Virus record (IMG/VR): IMGVR_UViG_3300045988_061988
Coordinates: 1-38,333 of that record
Direction: 5' to 3' (one strand)
Source: a virus
DNA: 38,333 nucleotides
Shown in pieces: positions 482-35,233 of the stretch. Numbering within the stretch: position 1 is the first letter of the stretch; each line of letters starts with the position of its first letter. The notes below the pieces were generated by a model. That model was not told the DNA's origin and searched no databases. It was given only the letters and a program-made list of their open reading frames with translations. The position numbers and the translations under genes are program-made.

Positions 482-880
482 TTGTACAGAAAGTATCACA
501 ATACAAAGACGGTTGCTGACGGCATCAAGTTTGATTCAAAACTGGAAGCTGAACGGTATGCACAGCTAAAGATTCTGGAACGTGCGGGAGTTATAAGGGG
601 GTTGGAATTACAACCATCTTTTGAACTTTTGCCGTCATTCAGGAAGAATGGCAAGACATGGCGTAAAACCGTGTATAAAGCCGATTTCAGGTACATCTTG
701 TGTGAGGATGATATAACTATCATTGAAGACGTTAAAGGCTCTACAGCGGTAATTACGGACGTATTTCGGTTAAAGCAAAAATTGTTCGAATACAAATATC
801 CAGAGTACACAATCAGCATCGTTACGAGTAAAGACATCAAGAAGTTTCAAATAGAAACGAAAGTCGTCAAAATGTGTTGA
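482..880 (+). CDS. DUF1064-family protein (putative Holliday-junction resolvase/endonuclease)
   Basis: TTG start 6 nt after a GAGGTG RBS. The N-terminus KYHNTKTVADGIKFDSKLEAERYAQLK...ELQPSFEL...YKADF is the characteristic DUF1064 signature. Confidence 0.75.
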   Translation: MYRKYHNTKTVADGIKFDSKLEAERYAQLKILERAGVIRGLELQPSFELLPSFRKNGKTWRKTVYKADFRYILCEDDITIIEDVKGSTAVITDVFRLKQKLFEYKYPEYTISIVTSKDIKKFQIETKVVKMC

Positions 881-905
881 CTTAATCACGTTTTGATGAT
901 AATAT
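844..905 (+). promoter_or_regulatory. Early promoter cassette 1: dyad GTTTCAAATAGAAAC, -35 TTGACT, 17-nt spacer, TGa-TAATAT extended -10
   Basis: Dyad at 844-858, TTGACT at 877-882, TAATAT at 900-905 preceded by TGa. Same architecture as the cassettes at 1809, 3387 and 4972. Confidence 0.65.
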
Positions 906-930
906 TAGAGAGTAGTAATAAACTATAATG

Positions 931-1033
931 TCTGTTCAGTAGTTCGCACCTGCTGAGTGGGTAAACAACTGAATAGATACGAGAACTGTATGGCTTGATA
1001 GGGTGCGAAACTATTAAAGCTGTGCAGTTTTTT
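931..1033 (+). promoter_or_regulatory. Structured 5' leader ending in an intrinsic terminator-like hairpin upstream of the replication genes (attenuator or small RNA candidate)
   Basis: TCTGTTCAGT (931-940) pairs with ACTGAATAGA (968-977). AGTTCGCACC (941-950) is complementary to GGTGCGAAACT (1002-1012). AACTGTATGGCTT (984-996) pairs with AAGCTGTGCAGTT (1017-1029, three G-U wobbles) and runs into a T6 run ending at 1033. Confidence 0.5.
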
Positions 1034-1051
1034 CGTTAGAAAGGCAATCAC

Positions 1052-1807
1052 ATGATTGAAGATACAGAAAAGAAAGGAAGGAAAAACATGAACGAAAGCA
1101 GAGACTTCAAGGGCGTATGGATTCCAAAGAAAGTGTGGCTAGACACTAGGCTTAATGCACTTGATAAAGTTATTCTTATGGAAATTGACAGCTTAGACCA
1201 AGGTGAAAAGGGATGCTATGCAAGTAACGAGCATCTTGCAGAGTTCTGTCAATGCAGTAAAACGAAGGTATCGACTGCAATTTCAAAACTTATTGAATGT
1301 GGATACTTATACATTCAAAATTTTGATGGAAGAAAGCGAGAACTGAAAAGCAGACTTTCAAATTTTGAAAGGCAGAATATCAAAAAATGTAATGCTGATA
1401 TTCAAAATCTGAAAGAAAGTAATACAGTTAATAATACAGTTAATAATACAGTAAGTAATAAGAAAGAAAGAAAGAGCAAATCGAAATCGTATGATGAACA
1501 GATTGAAGAGTATACAGAAAATGAAGATTTACAGAATGCGTTGAAAGCATTCTTACAGATGAGGTCATTCATCAAGAAGCCTATGACAGAGTATGCTCTT
1601 AAACTTATGTTAAAGAAACTTGATGAAATAGGAAATACAGACGATGCAAAGATCGCTATTCTAAATCAGTCAATCACTAATAACTGGCAAGGTATCTTCC
1701 CATTGAAGGATGGAAATACAAAGCAGGAGAAACAACCAGAAAAGAAATACGACCAGAACGGTTATGAGTCTGAAGAAGAACTTATGAAAATGTTCTACGG
1801 TAAATAA
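1052..1807 (+). CDS. Replication initiator/organiser: N-terminal winged-helix HTH plus C-terminal DnaD-like domain
   Basis: WIPKKVWLDTRLNALDKVILMEIDSL...GCYASNEHLAEFCQCSKTKVSTAISKLIECGYLYI is HTH_36-like. The C-terminus LQNALKAFLQMR...MLKKLDEIG...AILNQSITNNWQGIF is DnaD-like. An alternative start is at 1088 (better RBS). Confidence 0.7.
   Translation: MIEDTEKKGRKNMNESRDFKGVWIPKKVWLDTRLNALDKVILMEIDSLDQGEKGCYASNEHLAEFCQCSKTKVSTAISKLIECGYLYIQNFDGRKRELKSRLSNFERQNIKKCNADIQNLKESNTVNNTVNNTVSNKKERKSKSKSYDEQIEEYTENEDLQNALKAFLQMRSFIKKPMTEYALKLMLKKLDEIGNTDDAKIAILNQSITNNWQGIFPLKDGNTKQEKQPEKKYDQNGYESEEELMKMFYGK
1420..1455. repeat. Tandem 12-bp repeats TAATACAGTTAA (about 3 copies), iteron-like, inside the initiator gene
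   Basis: taatacagttaa taatacagttaa taatacagtaag read directly. They encode the NTVNNTVNNTVSN linker. Confidence 0.8.
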
Positions 1808-1808
1808 T

Positions 1809-1869
1809 GTTTCAAAGAGAAACAAAATACGAAAAAAGTATCGAAATTACTTTCATGTTATGTTATTAT
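1809..1869 (+). promoter_or_regulatory. Early promoter cassette 2: dyad GTTTCAAAGAGAAAC, -35 TCGAAA, 17-nt spacer, TGt-TATTAT
   Basis: Dyad at 1809-1823, -35 at 1841-1846, -10 at 1864-1869. The A-rich AAAAAGTA precedes the -35 as in cassettes 3 and 4. Confidence 0.5.
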
Positions 1870-1902
1870 AACAATGCAAAGAGGAAAGGAAGACAAAAGA
1901 AC

Positions 1903-2139
1903 ATGAAAAGAAAAGAATGCGAGAAACAAATCAGAGACTTGATGGTTCAGATTCATGACGTTTACAGGAAGTACAATGCAGACGGAAAATATCTCAGCCT
2001 TGCCATCATGGGCGACACCTTAATGGCAAATAATATGGAATATACAGACGATGCAGATCATCCGTTGGACATATACTATGTTATCGAGCAGAGGGAAGAA
2101 GAAGCATGGATGACAACACAGAAGGAGACGACAATATGA
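1903..2139 (+). CDS. Hypothetical early protein (78 aa)
   Basis: ATG 1903 is preceded by the RBS agaggaaaggaag. The track start at 1807 lies inside the promoter cassette and is unlikely. Confidence 0.55.
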   Translation: MKRKECEKQIRDLMVQIHDVYRKYNADGKYLSLAIMGDTLMANNMEYTDDADHPLDIYYVIEQREEEAWMTTQKETTI

Positions 2140-2297
2140 AAACATTTTTCGAAGTGGCGTTTGAAGTTTTGGGATGCGCAGTATTGGTAATTGGAATGAT
2201 CACAATATTTGTTGGTGCGGTATTGCAGGAAAGCTACCGTCATTTGATTGATAAGGAGAAAGAAAATGACATTAGAAGAATTGTTAAAAATGTCTAA
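2136..2297 (+). CDS. Small membrane protein (one TM helix)
   Basis: RBS gaaggag precedes ATG 2136. The hydrophobic segment is FEVLGCAVLVIGMITIFVGAVL. Confidence 0.5.
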   Translation: MKTFFEVAFEVLGCAVLVIGMITIFVGAVLQESYRHLIDKEKENDIRRIVKNV

Positions 2298-2517
2298 ATT
2301 CATGGATATTGAAGAATTCAACAAGCTTTTAAAAAAGCAAAATAGAATTAGGAATCGTTTAACAAAAGTAAGCAATCTTATTGATGATGAAATAGATAGT
2401 CTAGAAGCACTAAGCGATGAGATTGGAAGCGACCGTTATAACAGACATCTAGAAAAGTTACAAGAACTTGAGAATGAACAAGTGAAATTATTGGAGAAAT
2501 TCAAAGCCACCATATAA
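2266..2517 (+). CDS. Hypothetical coiled-coil protein
   Basis: RBS aaggagaaag precedes ATG 2266. The sequence has heptad-like charged composition. Confidence 0.55.
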   Translation: MTLEELLKMSKFMDIEEFNKLLKKQNRIRNRLTKVSNLIDDEIDSLEALSDEIGSDRYNRHLEKLQELENEQVKLLEKFKATI

Positions 2518-2528
2518 AGAGTGGCTTT
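2503..2528 (+). promoter_or_regulatory. Conserved intercistronic hairpin (AAAGCCAC-N10-GTGGCTTT), copy 1
   Basis: An 8-bp stem enclosing the stop codon of the upstream ORF. The core CCACC..ATAAAGAGTGG is shared with 3828-3850. Confidence 0.5.
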
Positions 2529-2547
2529 TGCAGGAAGGACTGACAAC

Positions 2548-3384
2548 ATGAATATTTTTAAGAACGAAGAGCGGCCAACAGAAGAAGCAATCCAGAGGAT
2601 GTTAGAACATTGCGATGAAAGTGCTGAATACATCAAAGACAATATGATATACTGCAAAAAATGCAACGAGCCACGAAGAAAATGGTTGTCGGCAGTCGGG
2701 ATATATGTTCCTGTAATGTGTTCATGCTTGATTGCTGAAAATGACAGGAAGGAAGCAGAGAAAAAGAAGCAGGACAGACTGGCACGAATTGAAGGATATA
2801 GGAACACAGGCTTTCCTGACAGAGAACTTCAGAAATGCAGATTTGATCACGATGATCAGAAATCAAAGAAGGCTAGCGACATGTGCAGAAATTATGCCAG
2901 ACGGTTTGAGGACTTCAATAAAGCAGGAAAAGGGCTTATTCTTTTTGGCGGAGTTGGAACAGGCAAGACGTTTCTTGCTTCATGCATCGCAAATGAGTTG
3001 ATTGACAATGATGTGCCGTGTCTTGTAACGAATTTTGCACGAATCATCAATACCCTTCAGGGAATGTATGAAGGAAAGCAGAAATATCTGGACAGCCTGA
3101 ACGAGTTTGACCTTCTGGTGATTGATGATCTAGGGATTGAACGAAACACTGAATATGTTAACGAACTTGTGTATAATATCATTGATGCGAGATACAGAAG
3201 CGGAAAGCCAATGATTATCACAACGAATTTAAAATATTCGGACTTATACCATACAGAAGATACAAGCAAAGCCCGAATATACAGCCGTATTATTGAAATG
3301 TGCCTTCCTGTATTGGTAAGCGGTGAAGACAGACGAAAGAACAAAGCGCAGGATTCAAGGCTCATGGATATTTTGAACGGTTAA
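2548..3384 (+). CDS. DnaC/IstB-like AAA+ ATPase (helicase loader)
   Basis: Walker A LFGGVGTGKTFLASCIANEL, Walker B LLVIDDLGIE, and sensor region KPMIITTNL. Confidence 0.85.
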   Translation: MNIFKNEERPTEEAIQRMLEHCDESAEYIKDNMIYCKKCNEPRRKWLSAVGIYVPVMCSCLIAENDRKEAEKKKQDRLARIEGYRNTGFPDRELQKCRFDHDDQKSKKASDMCRNYARRFEDFNKAGKGLILFGGVGTGKTFLASCIANELIDNDVPCLVTNFARIINTLQGMYEGKQKYLDSLNEFDLLVIDDLGIERNTEYVNELVYNIIDARYRSGKPMIITTNLKYSDLYHTEDTSKARIYSRIIEMCLPVLVSGEDRRKNKAQDSRLMDILNG

Positions 3385-3386
3385 AT

Positions 3387-3448
3387 GTTTCAAAAAGAAA
3401 CAAAAAGCGCTAAAAAGTATTGTAATTATATACATATTATGATATTAT
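3387..3448 (+). promoter_or_regulatory. Early promoter cassette 3: dyad GTTTCAAAAAGAAAC, -35 TTGTAA, 17-nt spacer, TGa-TATTAT
   Basis: Dyad at 3387-3401, -35 at 3420-3425, -10 at 3443-3448. Confidence 0.6.
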
Positions 3449-3486
3449 AATAATGCAAAAGGAAAAAAGAAAGGAAAAAAAAGAAC

Positions 3487-3813
3487 ATGACAAACGAACA
3501 AATTATTTTCAACGAAGCAGTTGAACTTATGAAAAACGGAAAGATCGGAACCACAGGCAGACAGTTTGAGGTTGAGGATGAAAACGGCAACAAAACAATG
3601 CTCGATGAACCGGAAGACATTCATACATTCCAAGCATGGAAAAAGCTCGGCTATTGTGTTAAGAAAGGCGAGAAAGCTGTTGCACAGTTCCACATCTGGA
3701 AATGCGTATCAAAGGAAACTGAAAATAGCGAGGGAATGACCGAAGAACAGAAAAGAATGTTCATGAAAAAAGCAAGCTTCTTCAGCGCAAGCCAAGTGCA
3801 GGCAATGAATTAA
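3487..3813 (+). CDS. Small protein with an ArdC-N (DUF1738)-like ssDNA-binding motif (tentative)
   Basis: HTFQAWKKLGYCVKKGEKAVAQFHIW resembles the TFxQ(A/W)xxLGGxV(K/R)KGEKG core of the ArdC N-terminal domain. No protease domain is present. Confidence 0.35.
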   Translation: MTNEQIIFNEAVELMKNGKIGTTGRQFEVEDENGNKTMLDEPEDIHTFQAWKKLGYCVKKGEKAVAQFHIWKCVSKETENSEGMTEEQKRMFMKKASFFSASQVQAMN

Positions 3814-3827
3814 TGATATAAAGGCAA

Positions 3828-3850
3828 GCCCACCGCCATAAAGAGTGGGC
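3828..3850 (+). promoter_or_regulatory. Conserved intercistronic hairpin (GCCCAC-N11-GTGGGC), copy 2
   Basis: A 6-bp GC stem. The loop and 3' flank resemble copy 1 (..ATAAAGAGTGG...CAGnAAGGA). Confidence 0.45.
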
Positions 3851-3873
3851 ATTACAGAAAGGAAAGAAAAAAC

Positions 3874-4212
3874 ATGATAAACATTGGAACAATTAAAATT
3901 AAAACGTGGAATATTGAAGCAATGACAGGATATAAGCCACGCACAACATTCTATGAGGACTTCAGCATTGCAGACCATTTCGGAGGTCCTGCAATTCGAG
4001 ACACATATTGCAGAGCGTTCAACGCATGGCAGAACAATATTGAATACATGACAGAGCTTGTGATGGTCCTTAACTGGAAGATCGCAGAGCACTACAGAAA
4101 GAATGACAGACTTGCTGAAATGTATGACGAGCTTTGGCGCAAGGCTGACGAGTGGATGTATGACCATTTCGATGGTGAGGACTTACAGTATTTTATGAGA
4201 ACAACTGACTAG
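3874..4212 (+). CDS. Hypothetical protein (112 aa)
   Basis: RBS aaaggaaag precedes the ATG, and a terminator follows immediately. Confidence 0.6.
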   Translation: MINIGTIKIKTWNIEAMTGYKPRTTFYEDFSIADHFGGPAIRDTYCRAFNAWQNNIEYMTELVMVLNWKIAEHYRKNDRLAEMYDELWRKADEWMYDHFDGEDLQYFMRTTD

Positions 4213-4231
4213 GAAAGCCTAGTCTTTTTTT
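4207..4231 (+). terminator. Rho-independent terminator
   Basis: GACTAGG-aaag-CCTAGTC followed by T7. Confidence 0.8.
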
Positions 4232-4266
4232 ATCGAAAAAATTGCCAAAAAATGTCATGAAAACGT

Positions 4267-4295
4267 TTGACTTTTATATATTATAGTATTATAAT
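4267..4295 (+). promoter_or_regulatory. Sigma-A-type promoter (TTGACT, 17-nt spacer, TATAAT)
   Basis: Consensus-like hexamers at 4267-4272 and 4290-4295. The downstream leader resembles that of cassette 4. Confidence 0.7.
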
Positions 4296-4326
4296 ATAGA
4301 TGTAAAAAGAAAGAGAGATAAAAAAC

Positions 4327-4464
4327 ATGACAACAAAAGAAATCAAAGAATTAGCATTACAGATTCTAAACAGAAATGGTGAAACTGGAATTAAAAAGTC
4401 AGACTTTACAGTTAGACAGGCAAAGCAGTTGATCAAGGAATATAACTTAGGTTGGATGAAATAG
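4327..4464 (+). CDS. Small hypothetical protein (45 aa), not in the ORF track
   Basis: ATG 4327 after the RBS agagagat. Translation is MTTKEIKELALQILNRNGETGIKKSDFTVRQAKQLIKEYNLGWMK. It lies between a promoter and the next RBS. Confidence 0.5.
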   Translation: MTTKEIKELALQILNRNGETGIKKSDFTVRQAKQLIKEYNLGWMK

Positions 4465-4479
4465 AAAGGAAAAAAGAAC

Positions 4480-4626
4480 ATGACTGAAATTGTATGGCAA
4501 GAAATTAAGAAGAACGGAGAAATTGTTACAAAACAGAGAACATTCAAGACAGAGAAAGCCGCAGAAAAGTTCATTGAAAAATTGTATGATAAGGATAACT
4601 TTTACAATATTTTAGCTACAAGATAA
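4480..4626 (+). CDS. Small hypothetical protein (48 aa), not in the ORF track
   Basis: ATG 4480 after the RBS aaaggaaaa. Translation is MTEIVWQEIKKNGEIVTKQRTFKTEKAAEKFIEKLYDKDNFYNILATR. Confidence 0.5.
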   Translation: MTEIVWQEIKKNGEIVTKQRTFKTEKAAEKFIEKLYDKDNFYNILATR

Positions 4627-4642
4627 TAGGGAGGACAAGAAA

Positions 4643-4969
4643 ATGACAAACATGAACAACAGAGAATATTCAGCACTTATGAGTGCAGTAAATGAAATTA
4701 TGGAAGGCAGAACAGTTAATATTTATGAAAATTCAAGCTTTGGTGCAGAAGTAATAACATTCGGTGTGAACTGGTCAGCTTGTGGGACGCAGAACATCGA
4801 AGAAACAAAGAAATTTGTTGAGAAAATCAACAAGGCTTGTAAGATCGTGGAAAAGCTGAATGCAATGCAGATCATTGTAAACTATAAAGATGAAGAAAAG
4901 CCAGACAGAGAATCATACATGGCATTGATCACAAAGTATATGGAAGAATTACAGGCGATATTATATTAA
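4643..4969 (+). CDS. Hypothetical protein (108 aa)
   Basis: RBS tagggagga precedes the ATG. Confidence 0.6.
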   Translation: MTNMNNREYSALMSAVNEIMEGRTVNIYENSSFGAEVITFGVNWSACGTQNIEETKKFVEKINKACKIVEKLNAMQIIVNYKDEEKPDRESYMALITKYMEELQAILY

Positions 4970-4971
4970 AG

Positions 4972-5032
4972 GTTTCAAATAGAAACAAAAACTTACAAAA
5001 AGTATTGACATATTATTATAATATGGTAATAT
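4972..5032 (+). promoter_or_regulatory. Early promoter cassette 4: dyad GTTTCAAATAGAAAC, -35 TTGACA, 16-nt spacer, TGg-TAATAT
   Basis: Dyad at 4972-4986, TTGACA at 5005-5010, TAATAT at 5027-5032. Confidence 0.7.
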
Positions 5033-9634: not shown

Positions 9635-9850
9635 ATGGGGAAAAAAATGGTATTTTCTAATAAAACATATGACACTCTGAAGTGGGTTGCACTTGTTGGA
9701 ACGAACGCATTTTCAGCGTTAATTATCACGCTCGGCAAAATCTGGGGATGGGATAATGCAGAAGCGATTGCAGGAACTATTTCGGCAGTCGGAACTTGCA
9801 TTGGTGCATGCTTACAAATTAGTTCGGCGAATTATAAAAAGGTGGAATAA
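9635..9850 (+). CDS. Holin, SPP1/XhlB family
   Basis: KTYDTLKWVALVGTNAFSALIITLGKIWGW...AIAGTISAVGTCIGACLQIS matches the two-TM SPP1-type holin signature. An alternative start is at 9647. Confidence 0.8.
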   Translation: MGKKMVFSNKTYDTLKWVALVGTNAFSALIITLGKIWGWDNAEAIAGTISAVGTCIGACLQISSANYKKVE

Positions 9851-10198
9851 ATGACTCCTGAAGCAAGTGTAAGCATTGCATTACTTATTTCCTTGACATC
9901 ACTGGCATGTACGTTAATCAACACCTTTGCAGGTGGCAAAAAACGTCAGGAAGAACAGGCAGAGCGAGAAAAGAATCGTCAAATGGACATCGAAAAGAAT
10001 TTTGTAAAAATCAACGTAAAGCTTGATGAATTCTATGATACATCAAAGAAAATGATGGCAGATAACGGCGAAAAGACTGAGCAGCTGAAAAAGGTATCAG
10101 AGCAACTAATTCTTGTTACGGAACGTGTAAATACGTTGTTTAAATACAAGGATGATCATGAGCAAAGAATAAAAGGACTAGAGGACAAAATAAAATAA
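9851..10198 (+). CDS. XhlA-like membrane protein (holin-associated)
   Basis: N-terminal TM (VSIALLISLTSLACTLINTF) followed by a coiled coil. Its position between holin and endolysin mirrors PBSX xhlA/xhlB/xlyA. Confidence 0.55.
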   Translation: MTPEASVSIALLISLTSLACTLINTFAGGKKRQEEQAEREKNRQMDIEKNFVKINVKLDEFYDTSKKMMADNGEKTEQLKKVSEQLILVTERVNTLFKYKDDHEQRIKGLEDKIK

Positions 10199-10213
10199 AA
10201 GGAGGAATAAAGA

Positions 10214-11245
10214 ATGTACGGTATTGATATTTCAGAACACAATGGCAATATTAATTTAGAGCCATATAAAGGACAATTTGTCATTATTAGAGTTGGATAT
10301 GGTCATTTTCAATTAGACGAAAAATTTGAAAGAAACGTTAACGAGTGCAAAAGGCTAGGCATTCCGTTTGGGGTTTATCATTATTCATATGCATTGAATG
10401 AGGCAGAAGCAGAAGCAGAAGCAAGAGGAGTTCTTAATGCAATCGCAAAGTATAAGAACGATATCAGAGTTGGTGTATGGTTTGATATGGAAGACGCAGA
10501 CGGTTATAAGAGAAATCACGGCTTCAAGTTCTCAAATGCAACCATTGCTCCAATCTGCTACAAGTTCTGCAAAATGATTGAAGACGCAGGATATTATGCA
10601 GGCATTTACGCTTCTAGCTCATGGCTTCAATATGTAAATGGTTTAAATGACAGATTCGACAAATGGGTGGCTAATTGGGGAATGAATGATGGAACACAGC
10701 ACACAAACACTTCTCAATATGGAACAATTCAGCAATACACTTCTAAGCCATTAGACAAGAATGTAATGTATGCAGACCTTTCAAGATATTCAAGAGGTAA
10801 CACAACAGAACCTGTCAGAAAGAGTAACGAGCAGATTGCAGACGAAGTAATTTCAGGAGCTTGGGGAAATGGTGAAGATCGCAAGAACAGACTTACACAG
10901 GCAGGATATGACTACAATGTGATTCAGGACATTGTGAACAAGAAGGTTGCGCCTGTTAGAAAGTCAAATGATCAGATTGCAAGCGAGGTAATTGCTGGAC
11001 AGTGGGGAAATGGTCAGGACAGAGTGAACAGACTGAATGCAGCAGGATATGATGCTAATGCGATTCAGAATATCGTAAATGGCAAGATGGGTGCAACACA
11101 GGCACAGTATTACACTGTACAGAGTGGAGATACATTATCAGGCATTGCATCCAGATATGGAACAACATGGCAGAAGCTACAGGCTATGAATGGTATCAGT
11201 AATCCTAATCTAATCTATGCTGGACAGCGTATCAGAGTTAAGTAA
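10214..11245 (+). CDS. Endolysin: GH25 muramidase, two Cpl-7 (CW_7) repeats and a LysM domain
   Basis: N-terminus [10 protein letters not shown]...FVIIRVGYG (GH25). Duplicated RKSN(E/D)QIA(D/S)EVI(S/A)G(A/Q)WGNG(E/Q)DR(K/V)NRL..AGYD repeats. C-terminus [44 protein letters not shown] (LysM). Confidence 0.9.
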
Positions 11246-11714: not shown

Positions 11715-11744
11715 TTGGATAAACGGCCAAAATCACGCTATAAT
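11715..11744 (+). promoter_or_regulatory. Candidate promoter (TTGGAT, 18-nt spacer, TATAAT) in front of the AT-rich operon
   Basis: Hexamers at 11715-11720 and 11739-11744. Confidence 0.45.
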
Positions 11745-11795
11745 GTGAGTATAAGCCGTTTTTTGTTTCAAAAAGAATCAAAAACTAGCTTAATG

Positions 11796-11811
11796 TGTTC
11801 CACGTGGAACA
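11796..11811. promoter_or_regulatory. Perfect 16-bp palindrome TGTTCCACGTGGAACA (operator or RNA hairpin candidate)
   Basis: Read directly. It lies 29 nt upstream of the permease start codon, downstream of the candidate promoter. Confidence 0.6.
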
Positions 11812-11839: not shown

Positions 11840-12937
11840 ATGAAAATGGGAAATGAGAAACTAAGTTTTAAAAAAATAGGTGCTTCAAGTGCTGCAAGCT
11901 GGGCATGGGGAACATCTTTAATCATGGGACAACAAATAGCTCAAGAGAAAGGTATAATCGCTTGGGTCATATGGGCTGTTTGTAATACCTTAACGCTTGC
12001 ATTATTTGGATGGCTATATAACAATAAAAAAATTAGTCCAGAAACTTATAATAGAAAAGAAGTAAAAGTAATAGCATTAATAATTCAATTATTTAGCTTG
12101 TTAGTTCAGTTGAATTTTATAAATCAACAATTTTTAATTATTACAGGTAGTACAATTGCAGCATATTTGATAACAATAGCATTAGGATTTTTCTTTACTT
12201 TAATTGTTTACAAAAAAGGACTACCAACATCAGTTAAAACAGATGTATACCAATGGATCATGGCTATTGTATCAATTATAGCAGTTATATTAGTTGGAAT
12301 ATTTACAAAAGCCCCATTACAAGTATTTGCACCAACTAGCATGAGTGGTGTGTTATGGGGAATATGGTCTGGACTTATTTTGTTTGCTGGACCTATTGGA
12401 GATGTACAACATTGGCAAAGAGCAGAAGCAGATGAAAGTAAAAAAGGTTATTATTTAGGAGCATTTTTATTTGGACTTTATATGTTATTAATATTAGGAA
12501 TGGCTTTCTTTAAATTTACACTACCAATGCATATTATTTTATTAGTAGCAGTTCTTGGAGTAACTACATCGACTATAGATAGTATTGCAGTAGCACTTCA
12601 TGGAGTAGGGAATAAGAAAATAGGAACAGGACTTTCACTATTATTATGTATTGCATTTGGAGTATTTGTTAAAATGGGAATGCTTCAGTTATGGAGTTCA
12701 TTTGGAGTTATTAGATTTGCATTTGCAGTTGGTATTTTGTTATTACCGTTAGCATTAAAGAAAAAAACAAGTATAGTAATTCCAGTATCAGCAATAACGT
12801 TTGGAATAATGGTATTATTTGCTACTTTAGGACAAATAACAATTAATTCAATTGTTGGAGTTATAAGTTTTATAGTAGCAACAATAATACTTGGCTATGT
12901 ATCAGTAAAATCATTAGAAAGTAGGAAAATGAGATGA
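11840..12937 (+). CDS. Polytopic membrane protein (about 10-11 TM helices); permease, possibly sodium:solute-symporter-like
   Basis: Hydrophobic helices throughout. N-terminus IGASSAASWAWGTSLIMGQQIAQEKG and mid-protein GPIGDVQHWQRAEADESKKGYYLGAF resemble SSS-family TM1 and the (D)QxxxQR loop. Family call is tentative. Confidence 0.45.
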   Translation: MKMGNEKLSFKKIGASSAASWAWGTSLIMGQQIAQEKGIIAWVIWAVCNTLTLALFGWLYNNKKISPETYNRKEVKVIALIIQLFSLLVQLNFINQQFLIITGSTIAAYLITIALGFFFTLIVYKKGLPTSVKTDVYQWIMAIVSIIAVILVGIFTKAPLQVFAPTSMSGVLWGIWSGLILFAGPIGDVQHWQRAEADESKKGYYLGAFLFGLYMLLILGMAFFKFTLPMHIILLVAVLGVTTSTIDSIAVALHGVGNKKIGTGLSLLLCIAFGVFVKMGMLQLWSSFGVIRFAFAVGILLLPLALKKKTSIVIPVSAITFGIMVLFATLGQITINSIVGVISFIVATIILGYVSVKSLESRKMR

Positions 12938-13557
12938 AATTAGAAGTAGTAAAATTAAGTGATTTAAAACCATTGGAGAAGAATGTTAGAAAACATAATG
13001 ATAAACAAATTGATGAATTAATTAAAAGTGTAGAACAATTCGGACAAACTAGAGCAATGGTTATTGATGAATATAATAATATTTTAATTGGTAATGGTTT
13101 ATATTTTGCTTTAGTAAAAATGAATAGAGAAGAAGTTCAATGTTATAGAAAGACAGGACTATCAGAAACTGAAAAGAAAAAATTAATTTTAAGTGATAAT
13201 AAAATTTATGGCTTAGGTTCAGATGATTACGAAGAAATAAATAATTATATTCAAGAGATAACTGGAATGGGAGATTTTGAAATCGCTGGTTATGACAAGT
13301 TTATTTTGGAGCAAATGACTGCAACAGATGAACAAGTTGAAGAAGCAATAAAAAATTATGGTACTATAACAGATACTAAATTTATTCAAGAAGAACCAAA
13401 ACAAGAAACAAGTTATAAAGAACCAGAAATTAAAAATGAACCAGAAATTAAAAATGAACAAGTAACAATGGTAACGGAAACAAAAGTCGGCGCTGAAAAA
13501 AATGAGAAGAAATATATTATATGTCCTTCTTGTGGGGAGATGATCTATCTTGATTAA
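12934..13557 (+). CDS. ParB N-terminal-domain-like protein (degenerate catalytic box) with a tandem PEIKNE repeat and C-terminal CxxC
   Basis: VVKLSDLKPLEKNVRKH...QIDELIKSVEQFGQTRAMVIDEYNNILIGNGLYFAL is a ParBc-like layout, but GNGLY replaces the usual GxHR. C-terminus CPSCGEMIYLD. ATGA overlap with the permease. Confidence 0.6.
   Translation: MKLEVVKLSDLKPLEKNVRKHNDKQIDELIKSVEQFGQTRAMVIDEYNNILIGNGLYFALVKMNREEVQCYRKTGLSETEKKKLILSDNKIYGLGSDDYEEINNYIQEITGMGDFEIAGYDKFILEQMTATDEQVEEAIKNYGTITDTKFIQEEPKQETSYKEPEIKNEPEIKNEQVTMVTETKVGAEKNEKKYIICPSCGEMIYLD
13420..13455 (+). repeat. Perfect tandem duplication of an 18-bp unit (GAACCAGAAATTAAAAAT x2) inside the ParB-like gene
   Basis: Read directly. 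It encodes EPEIKN EPEIKN. Confidence 0.9.
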
Positions 13558-14644
13558 AAAACAATACTCAAACATTGATGTCGTAACAATGGCTAAGACA
13601 AGAATAAAAAATATATTTAAAACTGCTAGTAGAATTGAATTATCAGTAAGTGGTGGTAAAGATAGCATTTGCTTAAATGATTTAATATTTAAAATGTGTC
13701 AAAGTGGAGAAATAGACAAATCAAAATTAAAAGTTGATTTTATAGATGAAGAAGCAATATTTCCATGTATAGAAAAACAAGTTAAAAGCATGAGATTACA
13801 ATGGTTGAGTATTGGAGTACCTTTTAATTGGTGGTGTATTCAGGTAAAGCATTATAATTGCTTTAATCAATTAACAAATGATGAAAGTTTTATTTGTTGG
13901 GATGAAACTAAAAAAGATGTATGGATAAGACAAAAGCCAAAATTTGCAATTACAAATGATCCATTACTTGATGAAAGACATGACACCTATCAAAGTTTTA
14001 TGAATAAAAAAAATAAAAATTGTGTATCAGTAATTGGCGTTAGAGCAAGTGAAAGTATTCAAAGATTAACGAATTTAGCAAATAGAAAATTACAAGAAAA
14101 AATGTTTCCTATCTATGATTGGACCGATAAAGATGTATGGATGTATATAAGAGATAATAACTTAGAATTCCCAGATGCTTATAAATTTATGTATCAAGTA
14201 GGAGTTCCAATTAACAGATTAAGAATAAGTCAATTTTTTAGTATAGATACTGCTAGAAGTTTAACTCAGATGTGCGAATTTTATCCAGAACTATTTGATA
14301 AGATTTGTAAAAGAGAGCCAAATGCTTATATGGCAATGCTTTATTATGATACTGAATTATTTAGAAGACAAAAGAAAAATAAACAAGCAAAGAAAGATGA
14401 AGAAGTTGATTATAAGAATAAATTCTTTGAGATGTTAAAAGAAGAATGGAGATTTGATAATAAACCTATGCAGAGGGTAAAAAGACTAATTAATAGAATA
14501 TTAATTAAATATGGACCATTTTTAAATCAAAAACATTACAAAGAGTTATGTAATATAGTAATTGGTGGAGACCCCAAATTAAGAGCATTAAGAGCTTTAA
14601 TAATGGATTTAGATATTTATGTAAATAAGGAGAGTTACATATGA
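13550..14644 (+). CDS. PP-loop ATP pyrophosphatase of the PAPS-reductase family with a C-terminal extension (IbrA-like)
   Basis: PP-loop SVSGGKDS (nt 13643-13666), GVRASESIQR and PIYDWTDKDVWMYI motifs. A roughly 150-aa helical C-terminal region fits DUF3440-type proteins. The start is uncertain (TTG 13550 or ATG 13589). Confidence 0.75.
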   Translation: MIKKQYSNIDVVTMAKTRIKNIFKTASRIELSVSGGKDSICLNDLIFKMCQSGEIDKSKLKVDFIDEEAIFPCIEKQVKSMRLQWLSIGVPFNWWCIQVKHYNCFNQLTNDESFICWDETKKDVWIRQKPKFAITNDPLLDERHDTYQSFMNKKNKNCVSVIGVRASESIQRLTNLANRKLQEKMFPIYDWTDKDVWMYIRDNNLEFPDAYKFMYQVGVPINRLRISQFFSIDTARSLTQMCEFYPELFDKICKREPNAYMAMLYYDTELFRRQKKNKQAKKDEEVDYKNKFFEMLKEEWRFDNKPMQRVKRLINRILIKYGPFLNQKHYKELCNIVIGGDPKLRALRALIMDLDIYVNKESYI

Positions 14645-15189
14645 AAGAAAATGAAATAAAAAAATATGAAAATAAAAATATATTAGAACCTTTAGAAAAT
14701 GTTAAATTTGTTGATAGAGATTTATTAAAACCAAATAATTATAACCCAAATAAAGTATCAGAACAAAATCTTGAATTATTAGTTCAGTCTATATTAGTAA
14801 ATGGTTGGACTATGCCAATAGTTATAAGACCGGATTATACAATTATAGATGGTTTTCATAGATGGACTGTATCAGGTAGAGAACCATTGAAAACATTATT
14901 AAAAAATAAAGTTCCAGTTGTTATTGTAGATCATAAAGACCATGCAGAAGATGTCTATGGTACTATCACACATAATAGAGCAAGGGGAACTCATTTATTA
15001 GAACCAATGAAAGCAATAGTAAAAGAATTATTGGATGCAGGAAAAACAACAAAAGAAATATGTAAAGAATTAGGAATGAAACCAGAAGAAGTATTTAGAT
15101 TATCTGATTTCACAAGAGAAGATTTTTTAAGAATGATGATTAAGGACCAAAAGACTTATAATAAATCATATCAAGTAAAAAAATTTTAG
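14641..15189 (+). CDS. ParB/Srx-fold protein with a canonical DGxHR box (IbrB-like)
   Basis: LLKPNNYNPNKV...PIVIRPDYTIIDGFHRWTV...THNRARGTH, followed by an HTH-like KTTKEICKELGMKPEEVFRL. ATGA overlap with the upstream gene. Confidence 0.7.
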   Translation: MKENEIKKYENKNILEPLENVKFVDRDLLKPNNYNPNKVSEQNLELLVQSILVNGWTMPIVIRPDYTIIDGFHRWTVSGREPLKTLLKNKVPVVIVDHKDHAEDVYGTITHNRARGTHLLEPMKAIVKELLDAGKTTKEICKELGMKPEEVFRLSDFTREDFLRMMIKDQKTYNKSYQVKKF

Positions 15190-15572: not shown

Positions 15573-17244
15573 TAAGGCTTACGAATATTGCAAAAAATCT
15601 ATTAGAAAGAAAACCACTCCGAAGTACGTTAAGTTACAAATGAAAGCATGGATGAGGATTGCTGAAGGAAAAGACAGAAAGTATTTCATATCCGAAAAGA
15701 AAGTACAGCAGATTGAGAACATCCTGAAACTGTTGATTATGCCGAAAGGCCTCAAGGCCGGACAGTCTATGTATAAGTGCGCCACTGGTTATCAGTGGCT
15801 TATTTATATCGCAATGCTAGGCACGGTGTATCGGGAGAATCCGAAAAAACGCAGATACGAAACAGGTCTGTTGGAGATTTGCAGAAAGAATTTTAAGACG
15901 TACACGGTCGGAACGATTTTTATTATTTTGTTTTTGACAGAGCCAAAGTTCTCAAAATTCTTTTCAGTTGCACCAGATGGTTCTTTGTCGAAAGAAATCA
16001 AAGAAGCAATTTCAGATACAATCAAAAGCAGTCCGCTGATATATGAGTACAAAGGAACGAAGCGTTTCAAGCTGTTAAGGGACTACATCAAGTTTAAGCC
16101 AAACGAAAACACGTTAATTCCGTTGGCATATAGTAATAACCGTATGGACGGACGTATGCCGAATGCGTTCATCGCAGATGAGGTTGGAGCATTGCCAAAT
16201 AAATATCCTGTCGATGCAATGAGGTCAGGGCAGCTTAACGTCTTTAATAAACTTGGGTTCGTAATCAGTACAAAATATCCGACAATCGACAATCCATTCG
16301 AGGATGAGGTTGCATATGCCAAAAAGATTCTTGACGGCATTGAGAAAGACGAAACAGTATTTGCACTGTTGTATGAGCCTGACAAAACGTCTGATTGGGA
16401 AACAGACGATCTTATTCTGAAACAGGCAAATCCGTCGGCACTTGAAATACCTGAAATTTGGGATGATCTTATCAAGAAGCGTGCCAGAGCCATTGCTATT
16501 GAGAACGAGCGAGAGAACTTTGTTACAAAGCACTGCAATATCATTTATCAAGGTCAGGGAACAGAAACGTTTATTGATGTTAAGGATGTTCAGGCGTGCA
16601 AGGTTGCAGATATTGATTGGAACGGCAGAGTTGTATATTTAGGTGTTGACCTTTCAGAATCAAACGATAATACATCTGTTGCCATGGTTTCTGTAGATGA
16701 TGATGATAACATTCTTGCAGAAAGTTTTGCGTTTATTCCGGCAGACAGAATCACGGAGAAAACAGTCTCAGAGCGTGTAAACTATCAAGAACTATTGAAG
16801 AGTGGGAAGGTATTTGCATGCGGTGACAGAGTTATCTCATATGCGTTTGTTGAGCAATTAATCTTGAGCGTTGAAAGCCGTTATAACGTGCAAATTCAGG
16901 CGATTGGCTATGATAGGTGGAATGCATTAAGCACAGCGCAGAAATTGGCTAATGAGGGTTATAACACGGTTCAAATCAAGCAGTATTCAAGCGTGCTACA
17001 TTCTCCGACAAAGAGGATGAAAGAAGCAATCCTTACGCAGAAATTCAAATACACAGAAAATAAATTGCTAGAGATAAACTTTCAGAATGCAAAATGTGCA
17101 TACGATACAAACAAAAATATGTACGTGAGTAAGAAAAAGAGCAACGGAAAAGTTGATATGGTGGTATCACTTATCAATGCAATTTACCTTCTTGAGCAGG
17201 ATTATTTCCTGAATGAGGGTGACTTTACATTCCAGATGATTTAA
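15541..17244 (+). CDS. terL: Terminase large subunit (HK97/Terminase_1 type)
   Basis: Size, its position between terS and portal, and the pattern of conserved acidic motifs (FIADEVG, VYLGVDLS). The start is uncertain (15541, 15553 or 15556). Confidence 0.85.
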   Translation: MVVKMMAVTSSKAYEYCKKSIRKKTTPKYVKLQMKAWMRIAEGKDRKYFISEKKVQQIENILKLLIMPKGLKAGQSMYKCATGYQWLIYIAMLGTVYRENPKKRRYETGLLEICRKNFKTYTVGTIFIILFLTEPKFSKFFSVAPDGSLSKEIKEAISDTIKSSPLIYEYKGTKRFKLLRDYIKFKPNENTLIPLAYSNNRMDGRMPNAFIADEVGALPNKYPVDAMRSGQLNVFNKLGFVISTKYPTIDNPFEDEVAYAKKILDGIEKDETVFALLYEPDKTSDWETDDLILKQANPSALEIPEIWDDLIKKRARAIAIENERENFVTKHCNIIYQGQGTETFIDVKDVQACKVADIDWNGRVVYLGVDLSESNDNTSVAMVSVDDDDNILAESFAFIPADRITEKTVSERVNYQELLKSGKVFACGDRVISYAFVEQLILSVESRYNVQIQAIGYDRWNALSTAQKLANEGYNTVQIKQYSSVLHSPTKRMKEAILTQKFKYTENKLLEINFQNAKCAYDTNKNMYVSKKKSNGKVDMVVSLINAIYLLEQDYFLNEGDFTFQMI

Positions 17245-17273
17245 TTGTAAAAAATGTGCATTTATGCTAATAT
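17245..17273 (+). promoter_or_regulatory. Internal promoter candidate (TTGTAA, 17-nt spacer, TGc-TAATAT) between terL and portal
   Basis: Hexamers at 17245-17250 and 17268-17273 with TG at -15/-14. A dyad-motif copy GTTTCAAAAAGAAAA follows at 17288-17302. Confidence 0.45.
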
Positions 17274-17325
17274 ATTTGCGTAAAAATGTTTCAAAAAGAA
17301 AATACTAACAAAGGGCGGTAACGAG

Positions 17326-18582
17326 ATGGCACTATTCAGAAAAAGAATCAAGAATAAAATTAATCTTAACGATCAAAGTGTTCAGCTTGACGATGTGCTG
17401 TTATCGGCATTGCTCAACAATGAAAAGATTACGAGAGAGAAAGCATTGACTCTTCCCGCCATATCAGGTGCCGTGGATTTTATCAGCGGTTCAATTGCGT
17501 CAATGCCTGTTAAACTGTACAAGTACAAAGACGGCAAGGTTGAAGAAGTGCAGAAAGACAACCGTGTGCGAATGCTGAATGGCGATACTGGAAACACGCT
17601 TGACGGTTTCCAAACAAAAAAGGCCATGGTCGAGGATTATCTGCTTGGCAAGGGTGGATATTGTTACATCCAGAGAGACAGACAGAACAACGTAACGGCG
17701 TTGAAATATATTCAAGATATGAACGTTACTGTGTGGTCAAATTCCGACCCGATGAACCGTTTCGTACAGTTCTATGTTGGCACAAATAAAATATATCCGT
17801 GGAACATGGTAAAGCTGTTGAGAAATACCAAAGACGGAGCAAGTGGAAAGGGATTGACAGGAGAAATCTCGAAGGCCCTTGAAGTGGCATACAGCACATT
17901 AGTGTATCAGCTTGGATTAGTCAAGACAGGCGGTAACAAAAAAGGCTTCTTACAGGCAGAACGTAGAATTGGGCAAGAAGAAATCAATAAGCTGAAGGAA
18001 GCGTGGAAGCGGCTGTATACCAACAATACCGATAATGTAATGGTTTTGAATAACGGCATCAAGTTTCAGGAGTCGTCAAACAGTTCCGTTGAAATGCAGC
18101 TAAATGAGAGTAAGAAGACTTTGCAGGATGAAATAAATGGAGTATTCCATATTCACAGTGACTTCAATCTGACTTTCAAAGAAGCAATCTATCCAATTGT
18201 TAAAGCATTTGAGACAGCACTCAACAGCACGTTACTGTTAGAAAAAGAAAAGAAAAACTTCTTCTTTGAATTTGATACGAAAGAAATTGTGAAAGCAAGC
18301 ATCAAAGAAAGATTCGATGCTTACAAGGTTGCAAAAGACACAGGACTTATGACTATCAATGAGTTGCGCCGCATGGAAAATCTCAATTACATTGAGGGTA
18401 TGGACGTGATCAATGTTGGACTTGGAGCAGTTCTGTATGATATTGAAACCGGAACGTATTACACTCCAAACACCGGACAGGTGACAGGTGGAGATGAAGA
18501 AGAAGCGACTGATAAAGTGGAAGAAACTGAACAGGGGGCAGATGATGAATTACAAGTACCTGAAGAATCTGACGAAAAATAG
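17326..18582 (+). CDS. Portal protein, HK97 family
   Basis: Size and position between terL and the ClpP-type protease, plus an acidic C-terminal tail. Confidence 0.85.
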   Translation: MALFRKRIKNKINLNDQSVQLDDVLLSALLNNEKITREKALTLPAISGAVDFISGSIASMPVKLYKYKDGKVEEVQKDNRVRMLNGDTGNTLDGFQTKKAMVEDYLLGKGGYCYIQRDRQNNVTALKYIQDMNVTVWSNSDPMNRFVQFYVGTNKIYPWNMVKLLRNTKDGASGKGLTGEISKALEVAYSTLVYQLGLVKTGGNKKGFLQAERRIGQEEINKLKEAWKRLYTNNTDNVMVLNNGIKFQESSNSSVEMQLNESKKTLQDEINGVFHIHSDFNLTFKEAIYPIVKAFETALNSTLLLEKEKKNFFFEFDTKEIVKASIKERFDAYKVAKDTGLMTINELRRMENLNYIEGMDVINVGLGAVLYDIETGTYYTPNTGQVTGGDEEEATDKVEETEQGADDELQVPEESDEK

Positions 18583-33019: not shown

Positions 33020-33042
33020 GCAGACAGAAATGTCTGCTTTTT
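33020..33042 (+). terminator. Plus-strand hairpin plus T5 abutting the integrase stop codon
   Basis: GCAGACA-gaaa-TGTCTGC followed by TTTTT. Confidence 0.5.
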
Positions 33043-34375: not shown

Positions 34376-34549
34376 AAAAATACCTCCGATTGTTTGAAAA
34401 TAAAAAAAGCAGTCCATACTAGCCGATGAGAGGCGGTGAAAATATGGACGCGGAAAAAATATATTCGTTGCTGTTTAATCTTTATGCTGAACAGGAGAAT
34501 CTAAAAATTGATTATGAGTTAGACAACTCTTTTTTTTCGACAGATGGTT

Positions 34550-34891
34550 TCAATCAGAAACATTCTTGCTGTCTAGGTACAGTTTCATTATCTTCAGATA
34601 CAGCTCATCCTTCTCAGGTTCAGGAAGATCGTGAAACAGAGACTCGATGCGCAGTGTGAGGTCTGTCGCTTCATCATAGGTTGACGTATCAATTCCAAAG
34701 TAAGATATATCAATGCCGTAAACCTCACAAAAACGTTTCAGCGTTGAAAGAGTTAAGGAACGTTTTCCAGACTCAATATTTGATATGGCAGGACGAGAAA
34801 GCCCGACCATTTCAGCAAGCTCAGACTGTTTGAGATCACGTGAGTTGCGTAGTTCTTTGAGTTTCCTTCCAATCGATTTATTGTTAATCAT
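34550..34891 (-). CDS. XRE-family HTH repressor (CI-like)
   Basis: IGRKLKELRNSRDLKQSELAEMVGLSRPAISNIESGKRSLTLSTLKRFCEVYG. Divergent from the Cro-like gene and adjacent to int. Confidence 0.85.
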   Translation of the reverse strand: MINNKSIGRKLKELRNSRDLKQSELAEMVGLSRPAISNIESGKRSLTLSTLKRFCEVYGIDISYFGIDTSTYDEATDLTLRIESLFHDLPEPEKDELYLKIMKLYLDSKNVSD

Positions 34892-34986
34892 TATTTTTAC
34901 ACCACCTAAAAAAGTTTATATTTCGATGATAACACACCGTAGCTATTTGAAACAATAACAAATAATCGTCTTTTGATTAAAAGTAG

Positions 34987-35014
34987 TTGCAATTTGATGA
35001 GTCAGTGGTATTAT
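34987..35014 (+). promoter_or_regulatory. Early rightward promoter (TTGCAA, 16-nt spacer, TGg-TATTAT)
   Basis: Hexamers at 34987-34992 and 35009-35014 in the divergent repressor/cro intergenic region. Confidence 0.55.
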
Positions 35015-35038: not shown

Positions 35039-35233
35039 ATGAAAAGAGCAGAACTGAAAGCATTCAGAATATCAAAGGGATATACTCAGAAAGATGTAGC
35101 AGAAATGCTTGGAGTATCGACTAGCCATTATGCTTGTATTGAGCAAGGAACGCACAATCCTTCTACAAAGCTTGTCAAAGTGTTCTGCAATGTATTTGGT
35201 AAGGAAAATGCAAGTTTAATAATTGGGAGCTGA
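35039..35233 (+). CDS. XRE-family HTH protein (Cro-like)
   Basis: ATG 35039 after the RBS gaaaggggg. LKAFRISKGYTQKDVAEMLGVSTSHYACIEQGTHNPS. Confidence 0.8.
   Translation: MKRAELKAFRISKGYTQKDVAEMLGVSTSHYACIEQGTHNPSTKLVKVFCNVFGKENASLIIGS

Follow-up and report, generated by a model that had tools for sequence, protein, structure and literature searches.

What reads a 15-bp inverted repeat that recurs, almost always in one orientation, at gene junction after gene junction of a phage genome? This question is raised by IMG/VR virus record IMGVR_UViG_3300045988_061988, analysed here over a stretch of 38,333 nucleotides (the window). An initial annotation had described four promoter cassettes headed by the dyad GTTTC-AAAnA-GAAAC, and had offered two roles for it: a class-I-type activator site, or the operator of a phage regulator. 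We find that the dyad is a real, conserved regulatory element, wider in distribution than first reported, and from its sequence context we read it, at slightly better than even confidence, as the operator of the phage's own 113-aa XRE-type cI protein, reiterated along the genome as a dispersed network.

A conserved dyad at gene junctions

The four cassettes, at 844, 1809, 3387 and 4972, proved correct in coordinates, in layout and in the weak -35 of cassette 2. Exactly four copies of GTTTCAAANAGAAAC occur in the window, at these positions, followed after 18, 17, 18 and 18 nt by the -35-like hexamers TTGACT, TCGAAA, TTGTAA and TTGACA, respectively; spacers of 16-17 nt and a TGn-extended -10 (TAATAT or TATTAT) complete four sigma-A-type promoters. 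Outside the dyad the cassettes are only 65-84% alike, and their description as near-identical was too strong, while the pairwise similarities reported among their leaders were recovered as repeat families D4, D7 and D8. The range first given to the motif (844-5032) was also too narrow, as five further copies, some of them weaker, lie at 34547, 34939, 35320, 11765 and 17288.

The motif is far commoner than chance predicts. Allowing up to two mismatches, GTTTCAAANAGAAAC has 9 matches in the window against 1.0 expected, a number reached in none of 100 shuffles; GTTTC-N5-GAAAC occurs 5 times (0.04 expected), and the core GTTTCAAANAGAAA with at most one mismatch 8 times (0.33 expected). Seven of the nine copies are intergenic, the other two stand at gene ends or stop codons, and the A-rich strand is the sense strand in eight. 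The copies and the promoters beside them are as follows.

844-858, plus strand: dyad copy 1, GTTTCAAATAGAAAC, within the last codons of the DUF1064 gene; position kept in about 30 relatives
877-905, plus strand: cassette 1 promoter, TTGACT, 17 nt, TGaTAATAT; -35 begins 18 nt past the dyad
1809-1823, plus strand: dyad copy 2, GTTTCAAAGAGAAAC, 1 nt past the stop codon of the DnaD-like gene
1841-1869, plus strand: cassette 2 promoter, TCGAAA, 17 nt, TGtTATTAT; -35 begins 17 nt past the dyad
3387-3401, plus strand: dyad copy 3, GTTTCAAAAAGAAAC, 2 nt past the stop codon of the DnaC-like gene
3420-3448, plus strand: cassette 3 promoter, TTGTAA, 17 nt, TGaTATTAT, upstream of the ArdC-N-like gene
4207-4224, plus strand: terminator hairpin with T-run, then promoter TTGACT-17-TATAAT at 4267-4295; no dyad at this junction in the window
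4972-4986, plus strand: dyad copy 4, GTTTCAAATAGAAAC, 2 nt past the stop codon of open reading frame (ORF) 4643-4969
5005-5032, plus strand: cassette 4 promoter, TTGACA, 16 nt, TGgTAATAT
11716-11744, plus strand: putative late-operon promoter, TGGATA-17-TATAAT
11765-11779, plus strand: degenerate dyad GTTTCAAAAAGAATC in the leader, 20 nt downstream of the late -10
17245-17273, plus strand: promoter-like TTGTAA-17-TAATAT between terL and portal
17288-17302, plus strand: motif copy GTTTCAAAAAGAAAA, 14 nt past that -10, between terL and portal
34547-34561, plus strand: perfect-arm dyad GTTTCAATCAGAAAC, overlapping the cI stop codon
34939-34953, minus strand: switch copy GTTTCAAATAGCTAC between cI and cro, two mismatches, overlapping the putative cI promoter (a promoter that we assign from the sequence)
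35320-35334, plus strand: motif copy GTTTCAAAAAGAAAG, immediately before the ribosome-binding site of erf; promoterless

A pattern scan recovered about 44 IMG/VR contigs of 19-39 kb, all with the prefix 3300045988, each carrying several copies at the same junctions as in the window; motif-bearing fragments were also found in other IMG/VR samples. Each genome holds 8-9 copies, with the A-rich strand as sense strand in all except the switch copy. The relatives have one extra site, at the post-terminator junction matching the window promoter at 4267, where the 4207-type terminator is followed by a dyad and a promoter of a different cassette type (033662@8214, 051851@4425, 055718@30424). Individual copies differ in detail: the late-leader dyad is perfect in most relatives shown and carries GAAGC in two, the terL-portal copy reads GAAAA in all six relatives covering that junction, the switch copy reads GCAAC (one mismatch) in four, and the -35 of cassette 2, TCGAAA in the window, is TTGAAA or TTGCAA in relatives. 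Most IMG/VR matches to the 19-nt pattern outside this family were discarded as apparently unrelated and probably protein-coding sequence, judged from context only. A small ORF starting from the ATG that precedes dyads 2 and 3 was likewise rejected, as the ATG-ORF shows no conservation at other copies.

Among 132 non-redundant copies, chosen by their arms only, the loop is AAA[A/T/G]A nearly without exception and as invariant as the arms, and the four bases after the motif are RAAA. A recognisable sigma-A-type promoter lies downstream of 110 of 133 non-redundant copies, and in 94 of these 110 the gap from dyad to -35 is exactly 18 nt. With mis-calls taken out, true variation was limited to four copies at 8 nt and one at 28 nt, a shift of one helical turn either way; in other lineages, whose spacers are unrelated in sequence, the gap stays at 17-19 nt. 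An 18-nt gap places the dyad centre at about -61, and A-tracts (motif positions 6-10, 16-19 and 26-30) recur at a 10-bp period in register with the -35. By sequence alone, on a combined score counting 12 hexamer positions and bonuses, most cassettes reach 9.5-12 and possess the TG extension; in the window a poor -35 is confined to cassette 2. Of the 23 copies lacking a downstream promoter, about two-thirds (roughly fifteen) lie in late leaders and most others run straight into a ribosome-binding site.

The cI-type protein as candidate reader

The immunity region contains the genes that bear on the identity of the reader, together with a small ORF near the left end of the window.

154-471: ORF of 105 aa, phrog_7566, function not assigned
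33041-34417, minus strand: serine integrase gene (immunity/recombination region)
34550-34891, minus strand: cI-like XRE repressor gene, 113 aa
34987-34992 and 35009-35014: TTGCAA and TATTAT, putative PR of the cro-like gene
35039-35233, plus strand: cro-like gene, 64 aa, HTH_3

The suggestion that the dyad serves a phage regulator has held up, as it is a specific, conserved recognition element tied to the phage regulatory circuit. Four helix-turn-helix proteins had been nominated as readers; only the cI-like protein encoded at 34550 co-occurs and co-varies with the motif. One contig (L036/L200), unrelated to the window in nucleotide sequence, has copies of the motif immediately past cI, within the switch, ahead of erf and at a distance of 18 nt from an internal promoter downstream. 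Its cI is 63% identical to that of the window, with a nearly identical helix-turn-helix, and its Cro only 30%. A protein search turned up over 300 cI homologues, many of them encoded by contigs 33-39 kb long, and four lineages retrieved through cI alone (L201/202, L203, L204/205 and L206/207) have GTTTCAAAWAGAAA(N) at similar places, as well as directly after terminator T-runs and 17-19 nt upstream of internal -35s. Sites homologous to the copy at 34547 stand just after cI in L200, L203, L204 and L206; the switch dyad is perfect in L200 and has one mismatch in L203, L204 and L206; and the position before erf is kept throughout the window family and in L200, L203 and L204.

Motif density is 3.0 per 10 kb in cI-homologue loci versus 0.13 per 10 kb in control DNA, which comprised 1.25 Mb of other Clostridia prophage sequence (79 other loci from a contig scan with the DnaC-like protein) with no cI homologue above 34% identity; no GTTTC-N5-GAAAC occurs in this control. 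L120, a close relative by its DnaC-like protein, lacks the dyad. Only four proteins within 10 kb of cI are common to all lineages, namely cI itself (58-77% identity across lineages, the best conserved), integrase (43-52%), cro (31-43%) and ORF 154-471 (33-41%), the last of which might conceivably take part in recognising the motif. All six motif-sharing lineages have the cI helix SRxAISNIE without change, and residues S32, R33, A35, N38, I39 and E40 of helix 3 are invariant in 25 homologues; in Cro, with identities of 21-39%, helix 3 varies among lineages that share the motif. An AlphaFold model of cI (predicted local distance difference test, pLDDT, 81) comprises a five-helix helix-turn-helix domain (residues 4-65) and two C-terminal helices forming a helical hairpin, with no peptidase domain. 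Its best matches are phi106 AimC (PDB 9sf2), restriction controller proteins, a C. difficile XRE protein, DdrO and SinR, and the modelled protein looks like a dimeric repressor.

One relative, IMG/VR 3300045988_088469, has lost most of cI, including the helix-turn-helix. The affected region is homologous to window positions 34660-34945; two short 'cgtagct' repeats border the deletion, which joins the 3' end of cI to the switch dyad. This genome is probably a virulent, clear-plaque-type derivative.

Across cI clades, the repeated motif changes with the recognition helix.

Window family and L200-L207: helix SRxAISNIE; motif GTTTCAAAWAGAAA(C), i.e. GTTTCAAA..
L217-L219: helix [ST]RGQISNLE; motif GCTTCAAAT..
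Bo-Finn/Arian (L220): helix KRSTISNYE; GTTGC-AATAT-GCAAC and GTAAC-ATTGT-GCAAC
L212-L216: other helices; window motif at background level only

In the sister clade L217-L219 the window motif is absent and each 20 kb carries 5-6 copies of GCTTCAAAT.. on the early-sense strand and 0-1 on the other strand, an orientation bias of 16 to 1; these copies are found downstream of cI, within the leader of cro, immediately behind stop codons and ahead of promoters. The Butyrivibrio phages Bo-Finn and Arian are the nearest cultured phages by cI protein (41% identity); at the DNA level, megablast of 12 kb of the window found no match among INPHARED phages. The early region of Bo-Finn contains at least three terminator-dyad-dyad-promoter cassettes, with the two dyads starting 31 bp apart. 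Between the end of the distal dyad, GTAAC-ATTGT-GCAAC, and the -35 are 17 nt, which puts this dyad where the window dyad stands, and the proximal one, GTTGC-AATAT-GCAAC, overlaps the -35, the classical repressor position; GTTGCATAATGAAAC stands at the switch and GTTTCAAAATGCAAC before terS. These sites share the geometry of the window dyad, 5+5 arms around a 5-bp AT-rich centre, and differ from it in their arms (GTTGC/GCAAC) and in having a second dyad over the -35. A corresponding promoter-proximal operator in the window cassettes was considered and rejected, the sole similarity being the -35 TTGCAA itself.

The publication describing Bo-Finn and Arian (MN882552 and MN882551) annotates the cI homologue as a hypothetical protein, reports no immunity repressor or integration genes, and describes both phages as lytic in vitro (PMC7372960). 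We observed that the 'hypothetical' gene at 17239-17565 of MN882552 is a cI-type repressor homologue and adjoins a 525-aa ORF in the integrase position.

Further lineages yielded less. A de novo motif search of the P0207-type lineages gave no clear repeated dyad except in L215, whose different site, TTACATWTTGAC, recurs at the switch, after cI and in intergenic gaps and is suggestive only. Related-locus searches yielded no locus beyond the query for the L036 cI and P0168, and P0146 gave only weak partial matches against viral contigs; the P0146 lineages were then reached through a homologous-protein search and contig look-ups. The co-variation of helix and motif thus spans three clades at clade level, and as a comparison of sequences it is supportive of recognition by cI, not proof.

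From these associations we infer that cI would bind the motif and repress, in the following way. A cI dimer would place one helix-turn-helix on each 5-bp arm. Its operators would not be confined to the cI-cro switch, being present at 8-9 per genome, nearly all in one orientation, within very short intergenic gaps: each internal early promoter would have one, 18 nt ahead of its -35, others would lie in the late and terL-portal leaders, and single operators would flank cI and cro. In a lysogen, cI dimers on all copies would allow one protein to silence the whole prophage. Bound cI may act as a stoperator-like roadblock to read-in transcription, at 35320, 11765, 17288 and the promoterless copies of relatives. 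Copies at about -61 might in addition shut the adjacent promoter, either by covering the UP-like A-tract region or by touching the alpha C-terminal domain of RNA polymerase from a fixed face; the 18-nt rule and its 10-bp variants are compatible with such face-specific contact. The switch copy, lying over the putative cI promoter, could mediate negative autoregulation or be a Cro target. Once the repressor was inactivated, all cassettes would fire together. As cI has no autocleavage domain, inactivation would presumably require an antirepressor, and none was identified in the window.

Several points weigh against cI as the reader of these sites. The link to cI is correlative and is drawn from few clades in which many features differ together. 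A centre near -61 is the textbook position of a class-I activator and not the classical position of a repressor, and no convincing operator covers the PR core in the window, where the only candidate is a 10/15 match at 34986-35000. The motif is also asymmetric (loop AAAWA, with a 3' end more variable than the 5' end) and nearly always on the sense strand, and neither property is required by a simple symmetric dimer site. The 10-bp spacing variants could be a mutational by-product, arising by slippage between 10-bp periodic A-tracts, and not a result of selection. Finally, the reader may be a host factor, or a phage protein encoded beyond the 20-kb loci examined.

Alternative explanations and known systems

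As a class-I-type activator site, the dyad would bind an early protein, Cro or another, that recruits RNA polymerase from about -61 through the alpha C-terminal domain and switches on the internal 'delayed-early' promoters, with the same protein shutting off cI from the switch copy. Known class I sites are similarly placed (CRP at -61.5; GalR at OE, -60.5), the window dyad resembles them as a dimer site centred near -61 on a fixed helix face, and the 8-, 18- and 28-nt gaps all stay on that face; the poor -35 of cassette 2 and the overlap of the switch copy with the putative cI promoter, which would suit a Cro-like role, fit as well. Unlike those promoters, however, the window promoters look strong alone: most cassettes combine a TTGACA/TTGCAA-like -35 with an extended -10 and upstream A-tracts and, judged by sequence, would be expected to need no help. 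The same site is moreover used away from promoters: some copies have no promoter, those in late leaders lie past one, and the switch copy covers the putative cI promoter; the Cro recognition helix is not conserved among lineages with an identical motif; and the sister motif of Bo-Finn overlaps the -35, as a repressor site would. Activation, one of the two roles offered in the initial annotation, is on these grounds unlikely; it is nevertheless the foremost alternative to a cI operator. The motif might instead be a passive part of a duplicated promoter cassette, an UP-like block of phased A-tracts kept as microhomology for exchange and read by no dedicated protein. The 10-bp phasing of the A-tracts with the -35 and the many combinations of left and right flanks joined at the dyad agree with this, as does the loss of homology with L120 precisely at the stop codon of DnaC, the point at which a dyad would start. 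Curvature alone, however, does not explain why G1, C5, G11 and the T-run are invariant, and the motif is also found away from promoters (including both sides of cI), is kept in lineages with unrelated flanks and changes together with the cI clade, which makes a passive role distinctly improbable.

An RNA element would be a small hairpin, with a 5-bp stem and an A-rich pentaloop, serving as a boxB-like protein site or as a processing or stability signal at junctions. The sense-strand bias (8/9 in the window, 16 to 1 in the sister clade), the copies right after stop codons and in leaders, and the conserved loop all agree with this, and the isolated hairpin does form. Its stem is weak, however (-3.6 to -4.6 kcal/mol, with no U-run), and the last base of the motif is A, G or T at conserved sites or in whole lineages (G before erf, A at the terL-portal junction, A throughout L202 and L206), which cuts the stem to four pairs. 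The half-site variant GCTTC occurs as the left arm in L200 and L204 and, as GAAGC, as the right arm in several family members and L203, and GCTTC..GAAAC would leave a C-A mismatch in RNA. The arms never co-vary, single-arm variants disrupt pairing, and, against a boxB/nut-type site, compensatory arm changes are absent and the early-cassette site lies upstream and not downstream of the promoter. In addition, the switch copy has opposite orientations in the window and L200, the copy after cI keeps its DNA orientation despite the minus-strand cI stop codon, and no Rfam family matched anywhere in the window at gathering thresholds. We regard an RNA function as very improbable; because the last base varies, GCTTC is found in either arm (as a symmetric protein-DNA site would allow) and the switch copy is inverted, the dyad is taken to act as a DNA site, with half-sites GTTTC/GAAAC that are two-fold symmetric and have centres 10 bp apart. 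Among DNA-binding proteins, a host protein or ParB might be considered, as by our own reading the arms are those of the Bacillus-type parS site (GTTTC-ACGT-GAAAC) with one central base added, the window contains a palindrome of published parS sequence at 11796-11811, and ParB-like genes lie at 12934-13557 and 14641-15189. The dyad has an N5 spacing with an A-rich 5-bp centre, however, and not the N4 of parS, TGTTNCACGTGAAACA; relatives without the parS palindrome keep it; as GTTTC-N5-GAAAC it is absent from the 1.25 Mb of other Clostridia prophage DNA, and it tracks the cI clade; and the ParB-like proteins of the phage show the ParB N-terminal domain only. This leaves such a reader with the faintest of probabilities.

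Reading the dyad as a cI operator sets it beside several systems in which repressor sites are dispersed. The operators of P1 C1 and of the Bacillus phage phi105 (O1-O6) are scattered outside the immunity region, with one repressor controlling many early promoters. They are asymmetric and mostly overlap the promoters they control, in contrast to the window operator, which lies one to two helical turns upstream of the -35. In the stoperators of cluster A mycobacteriophages (L5 gp71 and relatives), an asymmetric 13-mer is bound by a monomer with two DNA-binding domains (PMC9283540, PMC6550527). In behaviour this is the nearest of the known systems, with P1 and phi105 also near: many repressor sites stand genome-wide in very short intergenic gaps, their orientation correlates strongly with that of transcription, the immunity promoter has a copy of its own, and the motif differs between immunity groups. 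The window has instead a 5+5 dyad whose candidate reader is an unrelated short XRE protein, predicted to be a dimer, and 8-9 sites against more than 20, most of them coupled at a fixed 18 nt to a downstream promoter. Because of the dyad site and the unrelated 113-aa XRE protein, the window system would work in a stoperator-like way without being a member of that group. A bolder form of this reading, which we put forward tentatively and hold to be less probable than not, is that stoperator-like genome-wide silencing arose independently in temperate phages of Lachnospiraceae and related Clostridia, from a dimeric XRE repressor and a pseudo-palindromic site, each site being both an oriented read-through roadblock and a contact repressor at -61, and the same sites being preferred crossovers between modules.

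CI of the Lactococcus phage TP901-1 has 180 aa, forms hexamers and uses three operators, OR, OL and OD (PMC7250872). As in that Gram-positive system, single dyads stand in the window switch and within a few hundred bp on either side (34547, 34939 and 35320), and the repressor lacks an autocleavage domain; unlike the TP901-1 operators, limited to three sites, the window dyads are reiterated beside internal promoters. AimC dimerises through its C-terminal domain and is inactivated by a small antirepressor (bioRxiv 10.1101/2025.11.23.689978). Like its best structural and sequence matches, AimC (9sf2) and SinR (1b0n), both of them dimers that a small antirepressor switches off, the window cI joins a helix-turn-helix to a small helical oligomerisation domain, but identity is only about 30%, the operators are unrelated, and no arbitrium genes were seen for the window cI. 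A literature search for the motif string returned nothing relevant.

Module junctions and neighbouring elements

The initial annotation had also proposed that the cassettes act as linkers for the shuffling of gene modules, by analogy with the PeSLs of T4-type phages, composites of a promoter and a terminator-like stem-loop in strictly lytic phages (PMC2839356, PMC4122927). We clustered the flanks (30 nt left, 60 nt right) of 158 copies and found that the cassettes do stand at module boundaries, one left flank being joined through the dyad to as many as eight right flanks and the reverse also occurring. Eight different right flanks follow the 3' flank of DnaC and five that of DnaD, and promoter cassette R6 is preceded by six different left flanks; contigs 021502 and 050347 have another gene upstream, with the fusion point precisely at the dyad's first base, and similarity to the outside phage L120 does not continue past the stop codon of DnaC. 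As every module boundary carries the same 15-19 bp, the sites would also act as module-exchange junctions, and these flank combinations support the linker idea as a pattern: dyads mark junctions where modules were swapped, and may either promote exchange or merely mark gene ends. The PeSL analogy therefore stands for junction behaviour, early-promoter cassettes being repeated at module boundaries that differ between close relatives. It does not extend to the dyad itself, which is no terminator-type stem-loop but a weak hairpin upstream of the promoter and apparently a protein site tied to immunity.

The window is the genome of a temperate phage of gut/rumen type, siphovirus-like, from a low-GC Firmicute (GC 37%). 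Its first 55 bases recur exactly at its end (1-55 = 38279-38333), and the genome is therefore circular, of about 38.3 kb (about 38,278 bp). The sole close genomic relative found for the DnaC-like gene, in the contig scan with that protein, was L120, from a metagenome-assembled genome labelled Anaerocolumna, a Lachnospiraceae genus. Apart from the genes listed above, the gene order is as follows.

482-880, plus strand: DUF1064 gene, replication region
1052/1088-1807, plus strand: DnaD-like gene, replication region, with an ATG at 1088
2521-3384, plus strand: DnaC-like gene, replication region
From ATG 3487, plus strand: ArdC-N-like gene, followed by many small ORFs
9635-11245: lysis genes, with an HNH protein next in order
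12934-13557 and 14641-15189: ParB-N-like genes
13550-14644: PAPS-reductase-like gene; this ParB-like/PAPS-reductase-like block lies just before the terminase genes and is followed by terminase, portal and structural genes
Immunity/recombination region: Erf, an exonuclease-like protein and SSB
912-1040, plus strand: strongly structured RNA (about 125 nt) driven by the cassette 1 promoter; it has two long hairpins, and a U-run behind the second makes an intrinsic terminator

The last of these had been taken for the leader of cassette 1 and is in fact a structured RNA, conserved and closed by an intrinsic terminator. The DnaD-like gene (ATG 1088) begins downstream of it, so that the cassette 1 promoter does not read straight into that gene. 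Its fold has a z-score of -5.6, and at least five sequence types occur in relatives, with 29 consensus pairs, eight of which show compensatory changes, across 14 variants. Within hairpin 1, an internal segment, TTCGCACC, is complementary to the terminator loop, GGTGCGAA; the match is 8 nt long in the type found in the window (1 of 200 shuffles) and 6 nt long in another type, where it is not significant alone, and the complementary pair seems to change together between RNA types. The RNA belongs to no Rfam family and may function as an attenuator, as a small RNA or in association with an origin.

Separately, TGTTCCACGTGGAACA at 11796-11811 is a perfect 16-bp palindrome identical to a published chromosomal parS sequence. 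It lies 17 nt past the late-leader dyad, upstream of a gene of unassigned function, the ParB-N-like genes and the PAPS-reductase-like gene, and is kept in most relatives and absent in a few.

If cI does read the dyad, the two would form a predicted repressor-operator pair for a large group of uncultured gut/rumen Clostridia phages, with more than 300 cI homologues; the cultured Bo-Finn and Arian had been reported without an immunity repressor. A rule relating helix 3 to arm sequence could then predict immunity groups from metagenomes, and the compact repressible promoter cassettes could serve Lachnospiraceae genetics. The dyads would also provide a concrete link between regulatory sites and mosaic junctions. 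More broadly, these phages would offer a second, unrelated case of prophage-wide silencing by dispersed, oriented operators, so far best documented in mycobacteriophages.

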